A stretch of DNA of 64,000 nucleotides from Nanobdellati archaeon (lineage in GTDB: Archaea; Nanobdellota; Nanobdellia; CSSed11-243R1), in the NCBI GenBank assembly GCA_027007025.1, contig JALTFL010000004.1, positions 4,773 to 68,772 on the forward strand. Reading direction: 5' to 3'. The translations under genes and the position numbers were made by a program. This document shows, in pieces, positions 16,181 through 34,349 of the stretch. How positions within the stretch are numbered: the stretch's first letter is position 1; each line of letters starts with the position of its first letter. The notes under the pieces are model-generated. The model was not told the DNA's origin and searched no databases. It saw nothing but the letters and a program-made list of their open reading frames with translations.

Positions 16181-16294
16181 TGGGCCCGGGGGGATTCGAA
16201 CCCCTGGCCTCCTGGTTAAAAGCAACACCTTCAAATCCAATTTTATTAGAATGAATTTGAAACAGGCGCTCTGACCAGGCTGAGCTACGGGCCC
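16181..16294 (-). tRNA. tRNA-Lys (anticodon UUU) with a roughly 39-nt intron at a non-canonical position in the anticodon stem
   Basis: Minus strand reads GGGCCCG-TA-GCTC-AGCCTGGTCA-GAGC-G-CCTG[intron]G-CTTTTAA-CCAGG-AGGCC-AGGGG-TTCGAAT-CCCCC-CGGGCCC-A; acceptor stem 7 bp, canonical D-arm and T-loop; one A:C mismatch at the top of the T-stem. Confidence 0.6.
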
Positions 16295-16380
16295 AAGCTA
16301 AATTTTTAGAATTTGATAGAATATTCTGCATAAATTGTTCGTGAGAGGCATCAAGCATACTTTTGTGAGTTTTTTTCTCA

Positions 16381-16500
16381 TTTATATACCTTTCTATGCA
16401 CTTTCTCTTTCTTAGAAATAAAGAGAACCTGCGCTAAGAGAAAGAATTTCTTCCGGCAAAACCTTTCTTTGGAAAAGAAAGCTGCAGGAAAGAAAGAAGA
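16381..16500. repeat. Hairpin-repeat region (ttctcttt-cttagaaat-aaagagaa; gaacctgcgctaagagaaag; ctttcttt-ggaa-aagaaag)
   Basis: Inverted repeats with pyrimidine and purine arms; contains the shared 20-nt motif in inverted orientation. Confidence 0.5.
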
Positions 16501-16504
16501 AAAA

Positions 16505-17749
16505 CTAATTGTATTCAGGGTTAGTTACTCTGCCCATGAATAGAATTTCGCCCGTATTTTTGTCCTCGATTATAAACATGAATGGATGATTTGCCCTAAA
16601 AACAGGTTGATGCATCTGAACAGCTGTAATCCCAACCGATACTTCTGTCGCAGCTGCTGCTTCCGTTCCCTCTTCATTTACATCAATGTATGCTTGGTGG
16701 ATTACACTTTGTATTAACAATCCACCTTTCTTTGACATACCAGTTAAATCCGCACCATATGAAAATGGTGTTGGCATTCCCATTTCCTTCAAATCATTTG
16801 CCATAAAATATTTTGTTTCAAATTTAAACCTCGGCAGGTAAACCCTAACTTCCTCACTGTGAAGCTTGCTTGTCAAATCATTTATTTTTTCAACGCTCAA
16901 ACTGTTTTCAAAATCATCTAAACTTCTTGGCAAGAAAACAATCATCGACAAGTTTCCTTTATATGGCAGCTCTAAAACTTGCGTTTCATTTTTTTCATAG
17001 TATGGAAAATCTTCTTTTATATACATCATATCAACAGAAATGTTGCCATCTGGTGTGATAAAATCTTCTTTGTGGGTTGCATTTTTGTTAAACTGGTGGC
17101 TCCAGTTTCCCTTGAAGTAAATCGCATTCGTCAAGACAAGGCGCGTTGCGGAGTTTAGTACTCCTTTCGGAATCAAGTCCTTTATTTTTCCGTTTGTCTG
17201 CTGTTCAATCCAAGTGTTTATTATATTACGTGCAGATTCCTCATCCGCAAAATTTAGATTTGTAACTTTTCCGCCATAAAATTCTTCAATTATATCAAAG
17301 TAATGCTGTGAAAACGGAAAATCTTTCTGCGCCCAAAGGGCGTTTGCAGTTCGCAAGGTATAATTCTCATTTGGAGTGTTGAGTATGTTGTAAATATGCG
17401 CGAACGAAGTCCTCAGCTCGCTCGTATTTCCAGGAAAATAAAAGACATTTTTTATTTCCTTCGCAGTTCTTCCGCGGGCACCCTCATAAACCATAGCAAA
17501 AGCAGATGATATGCTGTATGGCGAAAAGAAAACATTCTGATTTTCAAACTCTGTTGAGTATTTCTTGTACAAATCAATTGCGAACTTGTTGTTTGCTTCC
17601 GCAACCGCATTGAATCCTTGCGAAGTCCAACCACTATCCTTTAAGATAATAGCGTCTTTTGAAGTGATATTCTTTGGAGTAGTTACGCAGCCAAACACAA
17701 TCGCAACAGCGAATATAACCACAATTCCCATCAAAAATTTCGAGTTCAT
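16505..17749 (-). CDS. Serpin (serine protease inhibitor), secreted with lipobox-like signal
   Basis: Hinge EEGTEAAAAT, C-terminal PFMFIIEDKNTGEILFMGRVTNP, N-terminal hydrophobic segment ending FGC. Confidence 0.85.
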   Translation of the reverse strand: MNSKFLMGIVVIFAVAIVFGCVTTPKNITSKDAIILKDSGWTSQGFNAVAEANNKFAIDLYKKYSTEFENQNVFFSPYSISSAFAMVYEGARGRTAKEIKNVFYFPGNTSELRTSFAHIYNILNTPNENYTLRTANALWAQKDFPFSQHYFDIIEEFYGGKVTNLNFADEESARNIINTWIEQQTNGKIKDLIPKGVLNSATRLVLTNAIYFKGNWSHQFNKNATHKEDFITPDGNISVDMMYIKEDFPYYEKNETQVLELPYKGNLSMIVFLPRSLDDFENSLSVEKINDLTSKLHSEEVRVYLPRFKFETKYFMANDLKEMGMPTPFSYGADLTGMSKKGGLLIQSVIHQAYIDVNEEGTEAAAATEVSVGITAVQMHQPVFRANHPFMFIIEDKNTGEILFMGRVTNPEYN

Positions 17750-17954: not shown

Positions 17955-18195
17955 CGCCCCGACCGGGACTTTCAAACACTCGCCAAGTTTCTCTCTTAGC
18001 GCAGGTTCTCTCTTTTCAAAGAGAGAAAGTGCTTTTGAACCCGGGTCCCCGGCTTGCTGCACTCCGGAATTTCTTCCGCTGGCGCTTCTTTCTAAGAAGA
18101 GCCGTTCGACAGACCGGGATCCTAGACCAACGTCCAACCACTTTCTTTCCGTGAACTCTTTCTTTGGAAAGAAAGGGTTCCTAGACTATCGGGGC
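17955..18195 (-). tRNA. tRNA-Asp (anticodon GUC) with three introns (D-loop, anticodon loop 37/38, T-loop)
   Basis: Acceptor GCCCCGA/TCGGGGC, discriminator G; exon pieces GTCTAG...TTGGTCTAGGAT-C-CCGGT-CTGTCG[48-nt intron]A-GCCGG-GGAC-CCGGG-TTCAAA[intron]T-CCCGG; introns carry hairpin repeats; D-loop exon boundaries uncertain. Confidence 0.6.
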
Positions 18196-18238: not shown

Positions 18239-18398
18239 TCCCAGCGGCCGGACTTTCGAAGCCCACCCTGAGTTTCTTTCCCTCAAGGCTCTCTTTTTGA
18301 AAGAAAGGCTTGGTCGAACCAGCAACCTCACGGTTTCAACGATGGATTTCTCCACCATACCACTACAGCCGTGCGCTCTACCATTGAGCTACGCTGGG
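18239..18398 (-). tRNA. tRNA-Tyr (anticodon GUA) with two introns (anticodon loop 37/38, about 28 nt; T-loop, about 60 nt)
   Basis: CCCAGCG-TA-GCTC-AATGGTA-GAGC-G-CACGG-CTGTAG[intron]A-CCGTG-AGGTT-GCTGG-TTCGA[intron]..-CCGGC-CGCTGGG-A; C1:G72 and A73 as expected for archaeal tRNA-Tyr; anticodon intron contains a GGTGGA-GAAA-TCCATC tetraloop hairpin. Confidence 0.65.
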
Positions 18399-22684: not shown

Positions 22685-22895
22685 GCCCGACAGAAAACTT
22701 TCTCTTAGTGCAGCTTCTCTTTTCTAAAGAGAAGATGCTTCTTTTGGTAAAGCTTTTCCAACACCCTTCTTAGAAAGAAGCATACGGAAGAAACCCCGCT
22801 TTCTTTCTCTTAGCCCATGTTCTCTTTCTTTTAAGAAGGAGAAAAATTTTTTCTTTTCCGGACGCGCTTTTCTTTTTTCTAAAAAGAAAAGGGTG
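22685..22895. repeat. Hairpin-repeat region 3' of tRNA-Pro, with a degenerate tRNA-3'-end-like segment
   Basis: Hairpins cttctctt-ttcta-aagagaag and cttttcttttt-tcta-aaaagaaaag; motif ctcttagtgcagcttctc; minus strand ends GTCGGGCTTTTT, resembling the tRNA-Asp 3' end. Confidence 0.5.
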
Positions 22896-22899
22896 TTAG

Positions 22900-23131
22900 T
22901 GGGGCCGCCGAGATTTGAATTCCCGGACCATGCCAACTTCTTTTCCGTTGACGCTTTTCTTTTAAGAAAAGGGTCACTCGGGACCACGTGCATTCCAGGG
23001 TTTCTTTGGTTGAGCTTTCTTTCCCAAAGAAAGATCACCCCAGGCACGCATCCTAGACCAAGTTGTCTGCTCTTTTCTCCCTCTTTTGGTAGAGCTTTTC
23101 TCGGGAGAAAAGGCCTCTAGACCACGGCCCC
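22900..23131 (-). tRNA. tRNA-Pro (anticodon GGG) with three introns (D-loop, anticodon loop 37/38, T-loop 54/55)
   Basis: Acceptor GGGGCCG/CGGCCCC, discriminator A; GTCTAG...TTGGTCTAGGAT-G-CGTGC-CTGGGG[intron]T-GCACG-TGGTC-CCGAG-T[intron]TCAAAT-CTCGG; introns contain hairpins ctttcttt-ccc-aaagaaag and cttttctc-ggg-agaaaag. Confidence 0.6.
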
Positions 23132-26832: not shown

Positions 26833-28092
26833 ATGGTAAGTTTTTTAATTAACAACTTGTTAAAAAATAACATGAAATCTAACTTAAAAATGGCAAAAAA
26901 AGCACAATATGCCGCAACAATTATTTTGATTGGTATGGCTGCGTTGTTTGTAATTTATACAATTTTAGCTTATCCAGAGGAAAAAGCAAGAATTCTCAAT
27001 ATAACTATTCCCAATGAAACAAATATATCTACTTCCCCTCTCGGAGAAGGAACAAGTTTAATATTCAGCAGCGGGGAAATAAGTGAAATCGGAAGGTCAT
27101 CTGGGGAAACTGTGTTCTCTTTCGGAATGCCAAATGCTTACGTAGCATACCCTGTTGATGAAAAAATTATAGATGATAGTAATATCTCCCTAAGAGCATC
27201 TGTACTAAAAGGGAGCATATCTTATTTTTCAGCAGATAATATAAACCTAGAAAACACAAAAGATGTGTTGATAAAATTAAATATAACTCAATTAAGCGGC
27301 AATCCAAAACTAATTGTGTTTCTTAACGGCTCAAGCATATTTGAGAATACCATCACAAACACAGGCGAAATAAACATTCGCGTGTCAAAAACACTGCTTG
27401 GCGAAAATAATCCCATTACATTGAAAGTCGAGCACAATGGCGCGTTTTGGACTACAAACACTCTAAATGCAAATGTCAAAATTGTACAGGAATATTACAA
27501 CCCTATCAATGTAATAGATGAAAAATATATATCTCTTGGACAAACAAATATAAAAGGAAATGAATTAAGCATATCTTTCATGCCAACTAAAGCCATTAGC
27601 GATGGAGATTTAATCGTCAAGGTCAACGGGAAAATTATATTCTCCGGAAAGGTAGAGGAAGGAAAAATATTCACCATAACCCAGAGATTTGATGAAAGCA
27701 ATATTAAGGTTGGAGATAATACAATAACATTCGAAGCAGACAAAGGCGGAGTGTATAATCTAACAAATGTCAAATTTGAATTTGTTGCAGTTACCACACC
27801 CGCAACCAACAAAATTTATTCCTTTGACATCCCAAATAAGTATTTAACATCTCAAAACGAGATTATACTTGGATTAAAAGTCGACAAGATTATAAAACCA
27901 GGATATATCTATGCAAAACTAGGAGACAAAGGACCTATTTATTACTTTGAAGACAGCGACCTCGCTTCGGGTGCGTGGTCCTATGCTGTTCTTGACAAAA
28001 CATACCTCAAAGAATTGGGGAACAAGCTTATAGTTGATTCTCCAAATGGAAGATATAGGTTAACAGGATTAGTGATAATCGCGAAGGAGTAG
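26833..28092 (+). CDS. Membrane-anchored extracellular protein (N-terminal TM, glycosylation sequon-rich)
   Basis: Hydrophobic anchor AATIILIGMAALFVIYTILA followed by many N-x-S/T sites. Confidence 0.5.
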   Translation: MVSFLINNLLKNNMKSNLKMAKKAQYAATIILIGMAALFVIYTILAYPEEKARILNITIPNETNISTSPLGEGTSLIFSSGEISEIGRSSGETVFSFGMPNAYVAYPVDEKIIDDSNISLRASVLKGSISYFSADNINLENTKDVLIKLNITQLSGNPKLIVFLNGSSIFENTITNTGEINIRVSKTLLGENNPITLKVEHNGAFWTTNTLNANVKIVQEYYNPINVIDEKYISLGQTNIKGNELSISFMPTKAISDGDLIVKVNGKIIFSGKVEEGKIFTITQRFDESNIKVGDNTITFEADKGGVYNLTNVKFEFVAVTTPATNKIYSFDIPNKYLTSQNEIILGLKVDKIIKPGYIYAKLGDKGPIYYFEDSDLASGAWSYAVLDKTYLKELGNKLIVDSPNGRYRLTGLVIIAKE

Positions 28093-28121
28093 AAGTATTA
28101 ATTTAAATTTTTTGTATACTT

Positions 28122-29756
28122 ATGAATATAAAGTCATCTCTTGCCATATTAACCACCTGGATAAAAGAAAATGGAGCAAAAGAAGAAATTTTAATAAGTC
28201 AATTAATTGACAATCAAGGCACAGTTAAAGAAGTTAAGGATGCAGCAAGATTTCTAAAAGAATATATCAACAATTTAGTAAATGCAGCTAATATTGTTTG
28301 TAAAGAAATAAAATTAAATAAAACCGCCAAAGTAAAAAAAGTTTATATAAATACAATAGAAGGTGAGTATGCATACTTCAATATAATAACTGGGAAGTTG
28401 TCTCTAAATATATACTTATTATATGAAGGATTATTATCAAAAGGACTATTTTTTATCCCATTTACAATATTCCATGAGATTGGACATTCTCTCCAAAAAG
28501 AGTTATTAAAAACAATAGAATCCACCAAAGGATACTCAGAAAAGGCAGTAAAATTACGAAAAGATGAGCTCGAGAACACATATAGGATAATCATAAGTAA
28601 TTTTAATGGGTTATACGAAATATTTGGGACTATTTTCCATAAATTACCTGAAGACAGCAGGCAATCAAGCCAAATAAAAGAAATCATTTCCTTAATTGTT
28701 GAGGATGTAAAATATTTTGAAGAAACTATGAATAATATGAATTATATATTCCCCGATATAAAAGGATTGAATCAAATAAAAAAAATTATCAATGAAATGA
28801 TAAAAACATTAGATTCAATTAAGGATTACTTAAATGAGGTAATTGATACAAACAATTTATCTGACATCCAAAAGATAAAAGGCAGAATTAACAAATATTT
28901 CACTGCGCTGCACATATACATAAATACATTTTATAACATCATCTCAGACAGAGAATTTATCGAATTGATGTATGCAATATCATTTTCAAACATATTGCTA
29001 GACTCATATGCCGACTTCTTTGCGATAGTCGCCCTCTCAGAATTATTCAGAGGAGAACCGATAGGCCAATTTTATTTAAGGTTTAGTCAATACAAAAAAT
29101 ACACAAGCAAAGCGTATCCACTTAGAGCTCTTATTTTATATGATAATCCCTCATTTATCAAAAAAGAATTAATCACTACTTTATCTATTGGGATAACGTC
29201 TAAAAAAATTGGACAGATATACAGAAAATTGCTAAAGTTAGAAGGATATCTTAAAAAGTACAGTAAATTAACAGAAGAAGAAAAGAATGTATTGGAGGAA
29301 GATTTTGGAAAATTTTTAAATGAATTGGACAAAGATAAGAATTACATTGTAAATTCACTGGAAGAAATTACAAATATAATTTTTGAATATTACAACAAGT
29401 TAATAAGCTCACTCGAAGGAAAGCACATAGGATTCACTAACTTGAGTAGTGTACATCACAGAATTCTTAGCGAGATAAGTTCTCTAAAAGCTTCAAAAGG
29501 AATATCTAATGAAAGCATTAAAAGAATAATGATTGAATTATTAAATGCAGATGAAGTTGCAGGAAACATTTTTGAATCAATTGAAAAACATGAAAGTAAA
29601 GAAAAAGTCAATGAAATATTATCAAAATTTGGGGCTGTGGATGCAGATTACAACAAGTATATCAACAAACTAAAAGATGTTTATCATAAAATTGATAAGA
29701 TGGATATAAATAGATTAATCAAGGAAATTAACATTCTTAAAAACATTGTTGAATAA
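28122..29756 (+). CDS. Hypothetical protein with HEIGH (HExxH) zinc-metallopeptidase-like motif
   Basis: FHEIGHSLQKE motif; remainder is helical and low-complexity; no signal peptide seen. Confidence 0.45.
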   Translation: MNIKSSLAILTTWIKENGAKEEILISQLIDNQGTVKEVKDAARFLKEYINNLVNAANIVCKEIKLNKTAKVKKVYINTIEGEYAYFNIITGKLSLNIYLLYEGLLSKGLFFIPFTIFHEIGHSLQKELLKTIESTKGYSEKAVKLRKDELENTYRIIISNFNGLYEIFGTIFHKLPEDSRQSSQIKEIISLIVEDVKYFEETMNNMNYIFPDIKGLNQIKKIINEMIKTLDSIKDYLNEVIDTNNLSDIQKIKGRINKYFTALHIYINTFYNIISDREFIELMYAISFSNILLDSYADFFAIVALSELFRGEPIGQFYLRFSQYKKYTSKAYPLRALILYDNPSFIKKELITTLSIGITSKKIGQIYRKLLKLEGYLKKYSKLTEEEKNVLEEDFGKFLNELDKDKNYIVNSLEEITNIIFEYYNKLISSLEGKHIGFTNLSSVHHRILSEISSLKASKGISNESIKRIMIELLNADEVAGNIFESIEKHESKEKVNEILSKFGAVDADYNKYINKLKDVYHKIDKMDINRLIKEINILKNIVE

Positions 29757-29795
29757 AACTTTTTAAATCAAAACAACCTTTAATTTTCGGTATAA

Positions 29796-31349
29796 ATGGG
29801 ATTAGGAAGAGATTTAATTGGCGGAGGAAAAGGAATTACCCCTAAAAAGAATGACAATGCAAATAAAGAAATAAAAGAGGAAGCCGAAAAAGTTTTTTTA
29901 AATAATGAAGGCGGAAACCATCCAAACGTCAGTATGAGTGGATCAGAAATAATAAGATCCTCCGGTGCAATAATGTTCTTCATAGGTATCGCATTGGGAT
30001 TCTTTTTTGGATTACAATTTCTTGCAATAGCAATATTAGGTATAATTTTATTCATAATAGCCCCTTACATTCACATACCAAGTGGCGAAGCACTAATAAC
30101 AATATTCATAATTGGGGGAGTTGTATTAATAGGTGTTGTTTGGTTTTTTGGTGTCGGCGGCGGACAGGCAACCGCAGGAATGGGGAATAGAGTAGGTGAA
30201 AGCTTTAGTGGATTATTCAACAACTATTTATTTAGAAGTATTGGAAATATGTTAAAGAATCCATTTGGAATAGGTGTAACTGGCGGTAAATATGAAGAAC
30301 AAGAGCAAAAAACAAAAGCCCCTCCAAACCAAGCATTTTCAATTAGCATAAGAGGTAATGTAAATACTGCTAAGATGAATCAACATTCATTGACATTTAT
30401 AGTAACTATCAAAAATCTCGGGAGTAGTAAGATAAATGAATTACATCTTCAATTGAATTCCTTGACACCATATGACAATTGCTTAGTAATCCCTGATGGA
30501 AATGAACGAATAATAAAAAATATAGCTCCATTCTCAACAAGAGAAGTTGTATTCTCCGGCGGATGGATTGATTTGAATAAAGTCAAAGAAGTGATTATAG
30601 ATAATGTGTTAAAACCAAATACAAACACACCGATTTATATACGTGCAACAGCGTGGACATATTATCCAACAGCATCTAGATTAGCAGTAGAAAGAATGAA
30701 AAGCGATTTTGGAGTCTTGTTGATAAAAAATAATGCCCTCAGGCAAAAATCAACAGGAGCTATCTATAAATATGGTTCTGCAATGACGATTGACATGGAC
30801 ATAGGCCCACAACCAATCCTTGATAATTCCAATTCTGCTGCATTATTGTTAAAATGGCAAAATGTTGGCAATGGAAATATGAAATCAAATATGTCCCCCA
30901 TGTTATTTATTGTCACTCCAAAAGATTTCGGAAAGTGTATACCTGCAGGGTATATAGCTTACAAAGATGCAGAAAATTTACAATGTGACAAGACAAAAGA
31001 TAGCGCGGCAGGGTGTATCGTCTGCGACAACGAATTAGTTAACAGTTGGTGTGATAAAAATAGTAAAGTATGGACAGATATATCTAAATACACACCAGAC
31101 GCACTTTCCACATTAGAGTGGGTGTGTGATGTAGCTAAAAATGGTGAAAAACACGTCTGTGGCACAACTGATTTAACTATGGAATTTAATGTATTCACTT
31201 GCAGTTTAAATGTGCCTAAGATAAGCACAACGGAAGATATTGTTACAGATTATATAACAACTATAGCCACATATCCTTATGAAGTTAACTCTCAAACTGT
31301 AAAAGTTAATACGTTCTGCACAAGTGACCAAACAGGGTGTGGTGGATAA
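29796..31349 (+). CDS. Polytopic membrane protein with Cys-rich extracellular C-terminal domain
   Basis: Several hydrophobic helices in the first 130 aa; about 10 Cys in the C-terminal 120 aa. Confidence 0.5.
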   Translation: MGLGRDLIGGGKGITPKKNDNANKEIKEEAEKVFLNNEGGNHPNVSMSGSEIIRSSGAIMFFIGIALGFFFGLQFLAIAILGIILFIIAPYIHIPSGEALITIFIIGGVVLIGVVWFFGVGGGQATAGMGNRVGESFSGLFNNYLFRSIGNMLKNPFGIGVTGGKYEEQEQKTKAPPNQAFSISIRGNVNTAKMNQHSLTFIVTIKNLGSSKINELHLQLNSLTPYDNCLVIPDGNERIIKNIAPFSTREVVFSGGWIDLNKVKEVIIDNVLKPNTNTPIYIRATAWTYYPTASRLAVERMKSDFGVLLIKNNALRQKSTGAIYKYGSAMTIDMDIGPQPILDNSNSAALLLKWQNVGNGNMKSNMSPMLFIVTPKDFGKCIPAGYIAYKDAENLQCDKTKDSAAGCIVCDNELVNSWCDKNSKVWTDISKYTPDALSTLEWVCDVAKNGEKHVCGTTDLTMEFNVFTCSLNVPKISTTEDIVTDYITTIATYPYEVNSQTVKVNTFCTSDQTGCGG

Positions 31350-32527
31350 TGATGAAACATAAAGAATGGATATTGATTGTATTATTGTTTTTATTAGTCG
31401 TTTCTTTCGGATGTGTTGGCGAATCCAAACCAACAAATGAAACAAAGTTAGATGTGGAACAAGGAGTTGGTGTCGTTGGTAAGCTTAAATTTGACGAATT
31501 GCACCCCGGACTTGAAGGGTATATATCATTGGATGTAAGAAGCAACCTCGAAGGTGAAGGTGCTGGCAACGTTTTAATTGCGATAGATAATGTGAACCCC
31601 TTTAAAATAGTTGAATGTGGAGTAGTGCATAACAATGCAAATGACAATAGAAAATGTTCAGGACAACTTGACTTAGACAAAGGATTACCTGTAAGGGAAC
31701 ACAAAACAAGGCAACTTGTTCCTGGAAATGAAATAAATGTATTTTGGAGATTGAAAGCTCCAGGAAAAGATGAAATCTCTAATATCGCACTAAAACATCC
31801 ATTATATTATACTGTGTCATATGATTATAACGTAAAATTCCACCAAAACATTGTCTTTATGTCGCAAAATGAAATGATTAAGCGGAGACAAGCCGGTGAG
31901 GATTACATGATTTCAGGAGAATCAGGAAACACAGCAGGTGAGTTGAGATTTTCCGGCTCAACACAACAACCTATTATTTACTTCTTTGATTATGGTCCGC
32001 ATGAAAAAGAAGAATCTACTTTTTCATTCGCTACTCAATACCTCGTCGAAAACAAAGGAAAAGGATTTCCAATATCTGATGTTGTAGTCTTATTGGAATA
32101 CCCAAAAGATGGTATAGCTTTAGATGATAGTACACCTGAAGGAACACCAAACTATCAAGTCTATGGATGGCACAAATGGAATAATTGGGACGGTAAGATT
32201 TTATTGGATGATGGAAGTAGTATTGATTGCAGAACGGGCGATGAAAACAATCCACAAATAAACTGTAAGATATGGGTTGAGCAAACATTGGGAGATGACT
32301 TTAAAAAAATTGATACTACACATCTAATTGCAAAAGTCATTAAGAGAGAAAATTTTGTGGATTCATTTTCAATATACGCTCCATTTGTTATGACAGGTAA
32401 GGAAAGAACACACTTAAGGGATAGTAATATCCCCATGAAGATATACCCATTCAATGTCTATGCGATGTATAGATATTTCACAATTGGAAAAGATTATATT
32501 ACAGTATACCCTGTTAGGGGGATATAG
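31337..32527 (+). CDS. Secreted lipobox protein
   Basis: N-terminus LIVLLFLLVVSFGCVGES. Confidence 0.5.
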   Translation: MWWIMMKHKEWILIVLLFLLVVSFGCVGESKPTNETKLDVEQGVGVVGKLKFDELHPGLEGYISLDVRSNLEGEGAGNVLIAIDNVNPFKIVECGVVHNNANDNRKCSGQLDLDKGLPVREHKTRQLVPGNEINVFWRLKAPGKDEISNIALKHPLYYTVSYDYNVKFHQNIVFMSQNEMIKRRQAGEDYMISGESGNTAGELRFSGSTQQPIIYFFDYGPHEKEESTFSFATQYLVENKGKGFPISDVVVLLEYPKDGIALDDSTPEGTPNYQVYGWHKWNNWDGKILLDDGSSIDCRTGDENNPQINCKIWVEQTLGDDFKKIDTTHLIAKVIKRENFVDSFSIYAPFVMTGKERTHLRDSNIPMKIYPFNVYAMYRYFTIGKDYITVYPVRGI

Positions 32528-32540
32528 GAGGTAAGATAAA

Positions 32541-33398
32541 ATGAAAAAGGAAGGATTAATTATTTTAATTGCACTGTTTGCATTAGCATTCACATTTGGA
32601 TGTACAATGGGTGGTGAAAAGTCAAATAACACCAACACCGGCAATGGATATACCCTGAAAGTAAGTCCAAAAAATGTAATCTCGGAGGGAGTAATTACAA
32701 TAGATTTGAGATTAAAGAATATATTTGACAACGACATGAATAATGTCGAAGCAAGTATAAAGGATATACCTTCAACTTTCACGGGCACAGAAAAGGTAGA
32801 AGGTGTTACAATTGTAAAAGGTCAAGAATATCCGATGATATGGAGTATAACTGCACCAAGTACGGATTTAAAACAAAGCATAAATCCGAAAGTGGAAGTT
32901 TGCTTTGATTACACAACTAACTTTTATTTTGATACAGCATTAGTGCCAAGGGACAAGGCAACAGAAGAAGTTCAGGTGCAAAGCGGGTATTCGAACGGAC
33001 CTATCTCAGTAACACAAATGGGACTTGACAAAATATTCCTTAAAGAGGATGGAACTGGATTTATAACAGGTTCACTGGATATCAAAAATAACTGGCAGGG
33101 GCATATACAATCAATTAATAAAATAACAATAACCCCAAGTGGATTGACAGGCGGCATCAAATACGCAAGCTGTGGAGGGGACACCGTAACAACAATAACC
33201 CCAAGTACAGCAAACTGTGATATATTAAATAATAATTTGGCAATTGGAGATGGATTGATAACAACAATCAAATTAAGCACGACATCAGGCGGAAGCAGTA
33301 TATCCACTGAAAGGACAAATGGAGAAGTTGATTACACCTACTGTTATGATATACCATTAGGAACAATAACTGTCTGTCCTGTAGGACAAAGATGTTAG
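32541..33398 (+). CDS. Secreted lipobox protein, paralogue of 33408..34349
   Basis: N-terminus ALFALAFTFGCTMGG; shared CFDYTT...VP.D block with the downstream gene. Confidence 0.55.
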   Translation: MKKEGLIILIALFALAFTFGCTMGGEKSNNTNTGNGYTLKVSPKNVISEGVITIDLRLKNIFDNDMNNVEASIKDIPSTFTGTEKVEGVTIVKGQEYPMIWSITAPSTDLKQSINPKVEVCFDYTTNFYFDTALVPRDKATEEVQVQSGYSNGPISVTQMGLDKIFLKEDGTGFITGSLDIKNNWQGHIQSINKITITPSGLTGGIKYASCGGDTVTTITPSTANCDILNNNLAIGDGLITTIKLSTTSGGSSISTERTNGEVDYTYCYDIPLGTITVCPVGQRC

Positions 33399-33407
33399 GT
33401 GGATTAA

Positions 33408-34349
33408 ATGAATAAAAAAATTTTGTTTGCATTTTCTTTATTGTTTTTGTTAGCTCTCTCTCTTGGGTGTATAGGAGGAAATAAAAATAGTAATAACAAC
33501 GCCCAAGCTACAAGCGGAACATTAAATGCTACAATATTGATAAACGGTGTTCAAAGGAATAATATGGTACTAGTGTCTGAACAAAACGCACAAATTGGAT
33601 TAAAACTCAAGAACAATGGAAATGAACCAATTGAAAATGTTACTGGGCGTGTTCTCGGATGTCTTAATTCAAGCGATGCATTTACCGAAGAAGTTTTGCC
33701 ACATACTCAAAAGTATCTAAGCTGGGATGTTAAAGCCCCAGAACTTGGAGAAGGCGAGAAAATAAACTGTCCGACTACAATAAGAATCTGCTTTGATTAC
33801 ACCACGAAAGGATACACCGATTTGGTATTTGTACCCGAAGATTATAATGAAGCCCCCCCTTCACCAAGCTACACTGTTTCGGGCGACTACCTTGGTATAA
33901 ATTATAAATTTGGAGTCGCAAGAGTTATGAAACAAGGAGATAATGAGATGAATGGAGAGATAACAATTAATAACATAGGCGATGGATGGGTAGATTATAT
34001 AAATTACACGAATGGAGTGTCTTTGAATACACTAAGAAAAGTAAATATAACCCTTATAGGGGATAACATTGCAATATCCAAATTCGGTGGATTGGATCAA
34101 AGTGAATTAAGTAATTGGTTGAGCAACGACAAAAAAACACTAATACTCACAGCGGACAACACAAAAGAGGGGTATAGTTATCTTACAAAACTTGTGCAGG
34201 GCAAAAGTTTATTCTTGAAACTCAACATAAATGTAACCAACCCAAACAGCTTCCAAGATGGAACAAAGATATACCAGCTTAGAACAGAAATAAATTATGG
34301 TTATTGTATTGACATAGCAACATTAGACACAACATTGAGTGGAAGGTAA
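33408..34349 (+). CDS. Secreted lipobox protein, paralogue of 32541..33398
   Basis: N-terminus LLFLLALSLGCIGGN; ICFDYTTKGYTDLVFVPED block. Confidence 0.55.
   Translation: MNKKILFAFSLLFLLALSLGCIGGNKNSNNNAQATSGTLNATILINGVQRNNMVLVSEQNAQIGLKLKNNGNEPIENVTGRVLGCLNSSDAFTEEVLPHTQKYLSWDVKAPELGEGEKINCPTTIRICFDYTTKGYTDLVFVPEDYNEAPPSPSYTVSGDYLGINYKFGVARVMKQGDNEMNGEITINNIGDGWVDYINYTNGVSLNTLRKVNITLIGDNIAISKFGGLDQSELSNWLSNDKKTLILTADNTKEGYSYLTKLVQGKSLFLKLNINVTNPNSFQDGTKIYQLRTEINYGYCIDIATLDTTLSGR

Follow-up and report, generated by a model that had tools for sequence, protein, structure and literature searches.

A DPANN tRNA-Lys(UUU) gene with a very probable bulge-helix-bulge intron inside the anticodon stem

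[quoted passage not shown] BHB introns at non-canonical positions of archaeal tRNA genes are reportedly treated in work by Marck and Grosjean from 2003 and by Sugahara and colleagues from 2008, and the usual view is that they are recent, lineage-specific gains. [quoted passage not shown] Split tRNA-Lys(CUU) genes of N. equitans, Staphylothermus marinus and Staphylothermus hellenicus are joined at position 30/31 via a canonical hBHBh' motif, and a 3' half was at first taken for a tRNA-Leu(CAA) of low score (Chan et al. 2011, PMC3218864). For introns within the anticodon stem there is experimental support, with splicing confirmed by cDNA sequencing for the Aeropyrum pernix tRNA set, including the anticodon-stem intron of tRNA-Trp(CCA), and a synthetic precursor of Sulfolobus tokodaii tRNA-Leu(CAG) cut by EndA in vitro (PMC4307357). 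Multi-intron tRNA genes are known in Asgard archaea (Freyarchaeia and Atabeyarchaeia), and Asgard genomes in which 92-95% of the tRNA genes contain introns are reported (PMC11291895). A review lists 30/31 among the non-canonical intron positions of archaeal tRNAs (Yoshihisa 2014, PMC4090602), and the rarity implied by a sequence-only reading of the locus described here was thus overstated.

Our data concern a tRNA-Lys(UUU) gene in a 64-kb stretch of DNA, the whole of which is referred to as the window. We consider it very probable that this is a functional archaeal gene with one protein-spliced BHB intron that interrupts the 5' strand of the anticodon stem at the non-canonical 30/31 site. The intron is of a familiar archaeal type and ordinary within it: short, protein-spliced, framed by an hBHBh' motif and situated away from 37/38. 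Scientifically it is nothing new in kind. Its host is an uncultured DPANN archaeon, unlike those of the classic cases (Crenarchaeota/Thermoproteales and Nanoarchaeum), and its motif has the strict 3-4-3 form whereas many non-canonical introns have a relaxed one. With the split tRNA-Lys(CUU) genes it shares the amino acid, the 30/31 junction, the canonical hBHBh' motif and a mis-call as Leu(CAA); the split genes, however, are two separately transcribed halves with a CUU anticodon, and the present gene is contiguous, with a UUU anticodon and a 39-nt cis intron. A. pernix tRNA-Trp(CCA) and S. tokodaii tRNA-Leu(CAG) likewise have an anticodon-stem intron with borders that fit a BHB-like structure, but those cases, in other tRNAs and another phylum, were verified experimentally, whereas splicing is deduced here from the sequence. 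The Asgard tRNA-Lys(UUU) genes (L001, L005, L007, L010 and L022) likewise precede rpoB and have a 30/31 intron in which the H helix is the same; they carry two extra introns (D loop and T arm), in contrast to the single intron here. A literature search, which could not be keyed to '30/31', found no paper naming a cis intron at this site of tRNA-Lys(UUU).

The gene was located by a match to the Rfam tRNA family RF00005 at 16294..16181 on the minus strand (49.5 bits, E = 1.4e-07, gathering score 29), the sole Rfam match in the window at or above the gathering threshold. The alignment runs end to end (model positions 1-71), assigns a 42-nt insert to the anticodon region and reproduces exactly the coordinates of the sequence-only reading, which had given no strand. 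ARAGORN in its default mode detected zero tRNA genes in the whole window. On the minus strand the 114-nt locus reads GGGCCCGTAGCTCAGCCTGGTCAGAGCGCCTG / TTTCAAATTCATTCTAATAAAATTGGATTTGAAGGTGTT / GCTTTTAACCAGGAGGCCAGGGGTTCGAATCCCCCCGGGCCCA (exon 1 / intron / exon 2), with the following parts.

16181..16294, minus strand: whole tRNA-Lys(UUU) gene (pre-tRNA body, 114 nt), from the RF00005 match of 49.5 bits and from ARAGORN on the spliced form
16263..16294, minus strand: exon 1, tRNA positions 1-30, with the 5' strand of the acceptor stem, D arm, G26 and 27-30 CCUG, from the sequence and splice reconstruction
16224..16262, minus strand: 39-nt intron between tRNA positions 30 and 31, UUUCAAAUUCAUUCUAAUAAAAUUGGAUUUGAAGGUGUU, from stem restoration, bounded by the two BHB bulges
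16181..16223, minus strand: exon 2, positions 31-73, with G31, CUUUUAA, CCAGG, 5-nt variable loop, T arm, 3' strand of the acceptor stem and A73
16218..16220, minus strand: anticodon UUU (positions 34-36), from the ARAGORN cloverleaf of the spliced sequence

Excision of exactly 39 nt (16224-16262; pre-tRNA nucleotides 33-71) leaves 75 nt, which ARAGORN folds into a canonical cloverleaf for tRNA-Lys(ttt). The stems are GGGCCCG/CGGGCCC (acceptor, followed by A73), GCTC/GAGC (D) and CCTGG/CCAGG (anticodon), and the loops are CTTTTAA (anticodon), TTCGAAT (T) and AGGCC (variable, 5 nt). Because the D loop has 10 nt, nucleotide 32 of the pre-tRNA corresponds to standard position 30, which puts the intron at 30/31. 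The predicted 75-nt product joins ...GCGCCUG-GCUUUUAA..., and has a 5-bp anticodon stem capped by the 7-nt loop CUUUUAA, in which U33, the anticodon UUU and a purine at position 37 are all present, together with the short variable loop of a class I tRNA. Only removal of 16224-16262 restores the CCUGG/CCAGG stem, and neighbouring cuts fail to do so. The proposal that loss of about 39 nt would yield this loop and stem is confirmed. The lone blemish of the cloverleaf is an A49.C65 mismatch in the T stem (an NC mark in the Rfam alignment), where the orthologue L008 has A49-U65. We infer the lysine identity of the tRNA from its anticodon alone.

BHB folding of the junctions had been put forward as a check on this intron and gave a positive result. 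We scanned the pre-tRNA for hBHBh' motifs, with a 4-bp helix between two 3-nt bulges and a cut site behind nucleotide 2 of both bulges, and found a strict 3-4-3 BHB at the junction pair 32|33 and 71|72, flanked by an outer helix h of 4 bp and an inner helix h' of 10 bp. Its elements are listed here.

16269..16272, minus strand: outer helix h, 5' strand, A21 G22 A23 G24, pairing with C32 U33 U34 U35 at 16219-16222
16265..16268, minus strand: central BHB helix H, 5' strand, C25 G26 C27 C28, pairing with intron GGUG, 4/4
16262..16264, minus strand: 5' bulge U29 G30 / U, cut after G30, from the BHB scan and the archaeal hBHBh' geometry
16230..16261, minus strand: inner helix h', 10 bp, UUCAAAUUCA / UGGAUUUGAA, closing a 12-nt loop, from the BHB scan
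16226..16229, minus strand: central BHB helix H, 3' strand, intron GGUG, from pairing and homologue covariation
16223..16225, minus strand: 3' bulge U U / G31, cut before G31, from the BHB scan

All four pairs of helix H (CGCC/GGUG) are formed, one of them a G.U pair. The motif coincides with the single junction pair that restores the cloverleaf, and splicing at its bulges yields a canonical tRNA with all stems paired bar A49.C65. Of 2000 shuffles of the 114 nt, only 11 contained a strict BHB at any position with minimum helix lengths of 3 bp (h) and 7 bp (h'). A scan tolerating paired bulge nucleotides also returned registers 31/72 and 33/70, the products of which (73 and 77 nt) have broken stems; among these two and 32/71, only 32/71 gives the 75-nt cloverleaf.

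The pre-tRNA folds more stably than its dinucleotide shuffles (z = -4.1). With the BHB enforced the folding energy is -46.4 kcal/mol, 2.4 above the unconstrained minimum of -48.8 kcal/mol; with the D stem retained it is -42.0 kcal/mol. The minimum-energy fold has a slightly shifted register in which internal loops replace the 3-nt bulges. From these energies it follows that both the D stem and the anticodon stem of the precursor must unpair before the BHB motif can form, as is usual for non-canonical introns.

The same 114 nt can also be read as a tRNA-Leu(CAA) gene whose intron follows position 37, the canonical place. ARAGORN with its intron option (-i) makes this call at the locus, and the bases following CCUG, U UUCAAAU, do look like an anticodon loop. 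That call contains a U31.C39 mismatch in the anticodon stem, however, and its 37/38 junctions lack a BHB, given that the scan placed candidates only at exon-1 ends 31-33, 42, 64 and 65, not at 39. Moreover a class II tRNA such as tRNA-Leu has a long variable arm, whereas the variable loop here has 5 nt; both the mismatched stem and the missing arm had been anticipated from the letters. The CAA triplet is also missing in syntenic orthologues with differing introns (L008 and L023), the bases after CCTG in L008 being TTCAGCT, and the same low-scoring mis-call is on record for the 3' half of the Staphylothermus split tRNA-Lys(CUU) (PMC3218864). Since CAA is not conserved among the orthologues, it would be an accident of this intron's inner helix, and the leucine reading is effectively refuted by the sequence, with next to no probability left to it. 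The tRNA-Lys(UUU) reading has a practical consequence: tRNA finders run in bacterial mode miss the gene and an intron-aware one mis-assigns it as Leu(CAA), so that a genome annotated in this way would seem to be without a tRNA-Lys(UUU) and to have a spurious tRNA-Leu.

On the preferred reading, transcription of the gene would start at a promoter of its own, a short way ahead of the rpoH-rpoB-rpoA operon. The resulting pre-tRNA would form no cloverleaf around the intron; instead, as sequence and covariation suggest, positions 21-24 would pair with 32-35 (h), positions 25-28 with the GGUG at the end of the intron (H), and the intron would close on itself (h', 10 bp), leaving the bulges U29 G30/U and U U/G31. 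By the established archaeal pathway, EndA would then cut after the second nucleotide of each bulge and an RtcB-type ligase would join G30 to G31, with release of the 39-nt intron. In silico, the 75-nt product is predicted to refold into the canonical cloverleaf with anticodon UUU. By our own reasoning, EndA of any architecture should accept the motif because it is strict and because BHB recognition can proceed independently of the mature domain. Cleavage of strict motifs by typical alpha4 enzymes is described as confined to the canonical position (PMC3239211).

The gene lies 55 nt upstream of rpoH (ORF start 16125), which is followed by a split rpoB ('' and '), rpoA', rpoA'', an L7Ae/L30e-family ribosomal protein and a NusA-like KH-domain protein. 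Other genes in the window code for EF-1alpha, EF-2, S12, S7, PCNA, RFC, MCM, TBP, Nop56, fibrillarin and a thermosome subunit, and by its sequence it is clearly archaeal chromosome. Synteny with two Nanoarchaeota MAGs, L002 and L008, places the host within DPANN, in the Nanoarchaeota/Woesearchaeota radiation. Neither EndA (tRNA_int_endo) nor an RtcB ligase was found among the 60 ORFs of the window. Two flanking elements accompany the gene.

16313..16338, minus strand: conserved upstream block CAATTTAT..AGAAWWTTCTATCAA, putative BRE/TATA promoter, from a three-way alignment with L002 and L008
16170..16180, minus strand: T-rich trailer TTCATTTTGAC in the tRNA-rpoH spacer, candidate oligo-T termination or processing site, from the sequence only

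The upstream block lies 19-44 nt ahead of the mature 5' end and is near-invariant in the alignment of the window with L002 and L008, while the nearby spacer has diverged; we infer a promoter function for it. The trailer is possibly an oligo-T terminator or a processing site. Directly upstream of the tRNA gene, also on the minus strand, is a full-length serpin gene (16505-17749; Pfam Serpin, E = 1.3e-124) whose product has a signal-like segment at the N-terminus; the gene is kept in the relative L002.

Homologues were sought by a pattern scan of a genome collection at one genome per species, which gave 24 hits, about 13 of them discarded as chance matches or tandem bacterial tRNA genes. The nearest relative, L002 ('Nanoarchaeota archaeon AUK188'), aligns colinearly with 8 kb of the window (71-78% nucleotide identity), and the second Nanoarchaeota MAG, L008 (AUK136), is syntenic as well. 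The intron of L002 has 39 nt at the same 30/31 site, its stems kept through A>G and G>A changes and its loop diverged. Introns at this site have 27 nt in L008, 21 nt in L023, 17 nt each in L016, L017 and L019, and 29-30 nt in the tRNA-Lys(UUU) of five Asgard genomes (Freyarchaeota and Jordarchaeia). Helix H is fully paired in all of these genes, and the sequences of h' are unrelated. Nanoarchaeota, Woesearchaeota and Asgard genomes are all represented among these syntenic tRNA-Lys(UUU) orthologues upstream of rpoH. In two of the Woesearchaeota MAGs, L017 (6741-6800) and L019 (634-690), the gene has the 30/31 intron and ends after the T loop; the 3' strands of the T stem and acceptor stem were found neither before rpoH nor within the 8-kb loci, and these two cases may represent split tRNAs, deletions or assembly artefacts.

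A metagenome scan in which the sequence of the anticodon stem was left unconstrained gave at least 120 loci. With L002, L008 and the window itself, 123 matches were listed (120 of them metagenome loci), and 35 were dropped as chance hits or tandem bacterial tRNA genes. An intron at 30/31 is present in 88 of the 123 matches listed, with a strict BHB in 77 of the 88 and, among the matches listed, lengths of 14-42 nt. The variants of helix H comprise CGCC/GGUG, CACC/GGUG, CACU/AGUG, CGGC/GCCG, CAUC/GAUG, CGAC/GUCG, CGAU/GUCG, CGCG/CGCG and CAGC/GCUG. The search patterns demanded CTTTTAA together with portions of both the D arm and the T arm, so that conservation of these elements is built in and only the intron, H and h' were free to vary.

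In 52 distinct cores, pre-filtered for at least three H pairs, 94.7% of the cells were paired, against 74.5% in shuffles and 25.2-54.3% with slid partners. The covariation score of this set was 0.568, compared with 0.167 in shuffles (none of 500 reaching 0.568) and 0.035-0.138 with slid partners. Double-sided changes were seen in seven of the 12 pairs, namely three of the four H pairs (26, 27 and 28) and all four h' pairs; the remaining five were invariant or changed on one side only. Helix h is paired in all 52 cores, but three of its four pairs are invariant and one varies one-sidedly in a single sequence, and so h yields no covariation evidence. Because the set had been filtered on H pairing, a separate check was run on 35 distinct sequences in which the site was set at 30/31 by the anticodon-stem criterion alone; here H was paired at four of four positions in 34 of 35 (chance about 2%). 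These comparisons point to maintenance of the BHB motif by compensatory change. [quoted passage not shown]

We also considered that the locus might be a decaying tRNA-Lys pseudogene, broken by a 39-nt insertion and no longer processed. The A49.C65 mismatch fits such decay, and the locus is known from sequence alone, with another tRNA-Lys(UUU) gene possible beyond the 64-kb window. Yet the 39-nt insertion builds a strict splicing motif, the exons are otherwise flawless and the promoter-like block upstream is conserved. Furthermore, orthologues in distant lineages are interrupted at the same site and in the same syntenic position, with compensatory changes that keep the motif, a combination that indicates purifying selection on splicing. 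Decay is on this evidence very improbable.

A further alternative accepts splicing as described and adds a second role for the intron, as a modification guide RNA, a stable circular RNA or a barrier to integration of mobile elements. Some archaeal tRNA introns are box C/D guides, for example that of Haloferax tRNA-Trp, and the intron has been kept at 30/31 in many lineages. On reading the 39 nt, however, C (RUGAUGA) and D (CUGA) boxes are absent, and the intron sequence outside the helices is unconserved even between the two closest relatives. The 14-42 nt range of lengths among the matches listed also speaks against a sequence-specific function, and we give such a role little credence.

The order tRNA-Lys, rpoH, rpoB is found in at least 37 loci, with RpoB'' 40-89% identical to that of the window (the set includes L001, L002, L008, L023, L025, L034, L038, L084, L114 and L119). 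Judged from these loci, the linkage of tRNA-Lys(UUU) with rpoH and rpoB is deeply conserved, as it reaches lineages with RpoB'' only 40-50% identical, Asgard MAGs among them. The orthologous gene stands immediately upstream of rpoH-rpoB in DPANN, in Asgard and in many unplaced metagenomic lineages. This context bears on whether the 30/31 intron of tRNA-Lys(UUU) is old and vertically inherited rather than a recent lineage-specific gain, a tentative reading that we would entertain without favouring it; the data are compatible with an ancient, cross-phylum orthologous intron and do not establish one. Positions 21-24 of tRNA-Lys (AGAG) are intrinsically complementary to CUUU of the anticodon loop (CUCU in the CUU isoacceptor), so that the outer BHB helix is supplied 'for free', and this built-in complementarity may favour 30/31 as an insertion site. 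A cis intron at 30/31 could also be the form from which the split tRNA-Lys(CUU) genes arose. The recurrence of the site in syntenic tRNA-Lys genes across phyla thus has a modest bearing on the age of non-canonical introns and of split tRNAs.

Each of the three tRNA genes found in the window has at least one interruption, and two have more than one. A tRNA-Tyr(GUA) at 18239-18398 on the minus strand was missed by ARAGORN and scores 28.4 bits with Rfam against a cutoff of 29. Reconstructed, it has 72 nt, a C1-G72 pair, A73 and a clean cloverleaf. Its first intron (28 nt, 18335-18362) is at 37/38, where the H helix has one mismatch, and its second (60 nt, 18253-18312) is at 59/60 in the T loop, with a strict BHB (h = 5, H = UUCG/CGAA, h' = 6). 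A tRNA-Pro(GGG) at 22900-23131, also on the minus strand, was undetected by ARAGORN or Rfam and has 75 nt after removal of three inserts. One, of about 55 nt in the D loop (about 23062-23116), has uncertain borders, possibly with H = GUCU/AGAC; the others are at 37/38 (45 nt, 22993-23037) and at 53/54 (57 nt, 22920-22976), the latter with a relaxed HBh' motif without an outer helix. These introns were solved by hand and checked with ARAGORN, which gave a clean cloverleaf, and a combinatorial search with strict BHB motifs at 22.9-23.1 kb did not reconstruct the tRNA-Pro. Read from these genes, the window shows a DPANN lineage that would rely heavily on protein-mediated tRNA splicing, and the relaxed motifs and multiple interruptions suggest a splicing endonuclease of broad specificity. 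In line with this, DPANN alpha4 enzymes with an L3 loop accompany increased tRNA gene disruption (PMC5829648).

Perfect short hairpins with one all-pyrimidine and one all-purine arm (for example CTTTCTTT-GGAA-AAGAAAG) occur 11 times in the window, where 0.15 are expected from shuffles. Eight of the 11 belong to the three tRNA loci, in introns or flanking DNA. The hairpins may serve as signals for processing or termination, or they may represent an intron or spacer module that propagates. A second repeat, of about 30 nt (AAAGAGAAC-CTGCGC-TAAGAGAAAGAA), has no Rfam match and is present in four copies, all of them intergenic beside tRNA genes.

16463-16481, 18006-18027, 18158-18175, 22714-22734, 22867-22891, 22954-22971, 23015-23033 and 23095-23112: pyrimidine/purine hairpins at tRNA loci
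195, 2766 and 58687: pyrimidine/purine hairpins elsewhere in the window
16417-16448 (plus strand), 17985-18016, 22685-22722 and 22801-22831 (minus strand): copies of the repeat of about 30 nt

Apart from the tRNA loci, the plus strand at 26833-34349 contains six consecutive ORFs of 285-544 aa with no Pfam match, in the lowest-GC part of the window (28.5-36%). Several of them open with a signal-peptide or lipobox-like sequence (...LGC/FGC...), and the first has a pilin-like class III signal, KKAQ/YAATIILIG. By sequence features they are probably a lineage-specific cell-surface gene cluster.
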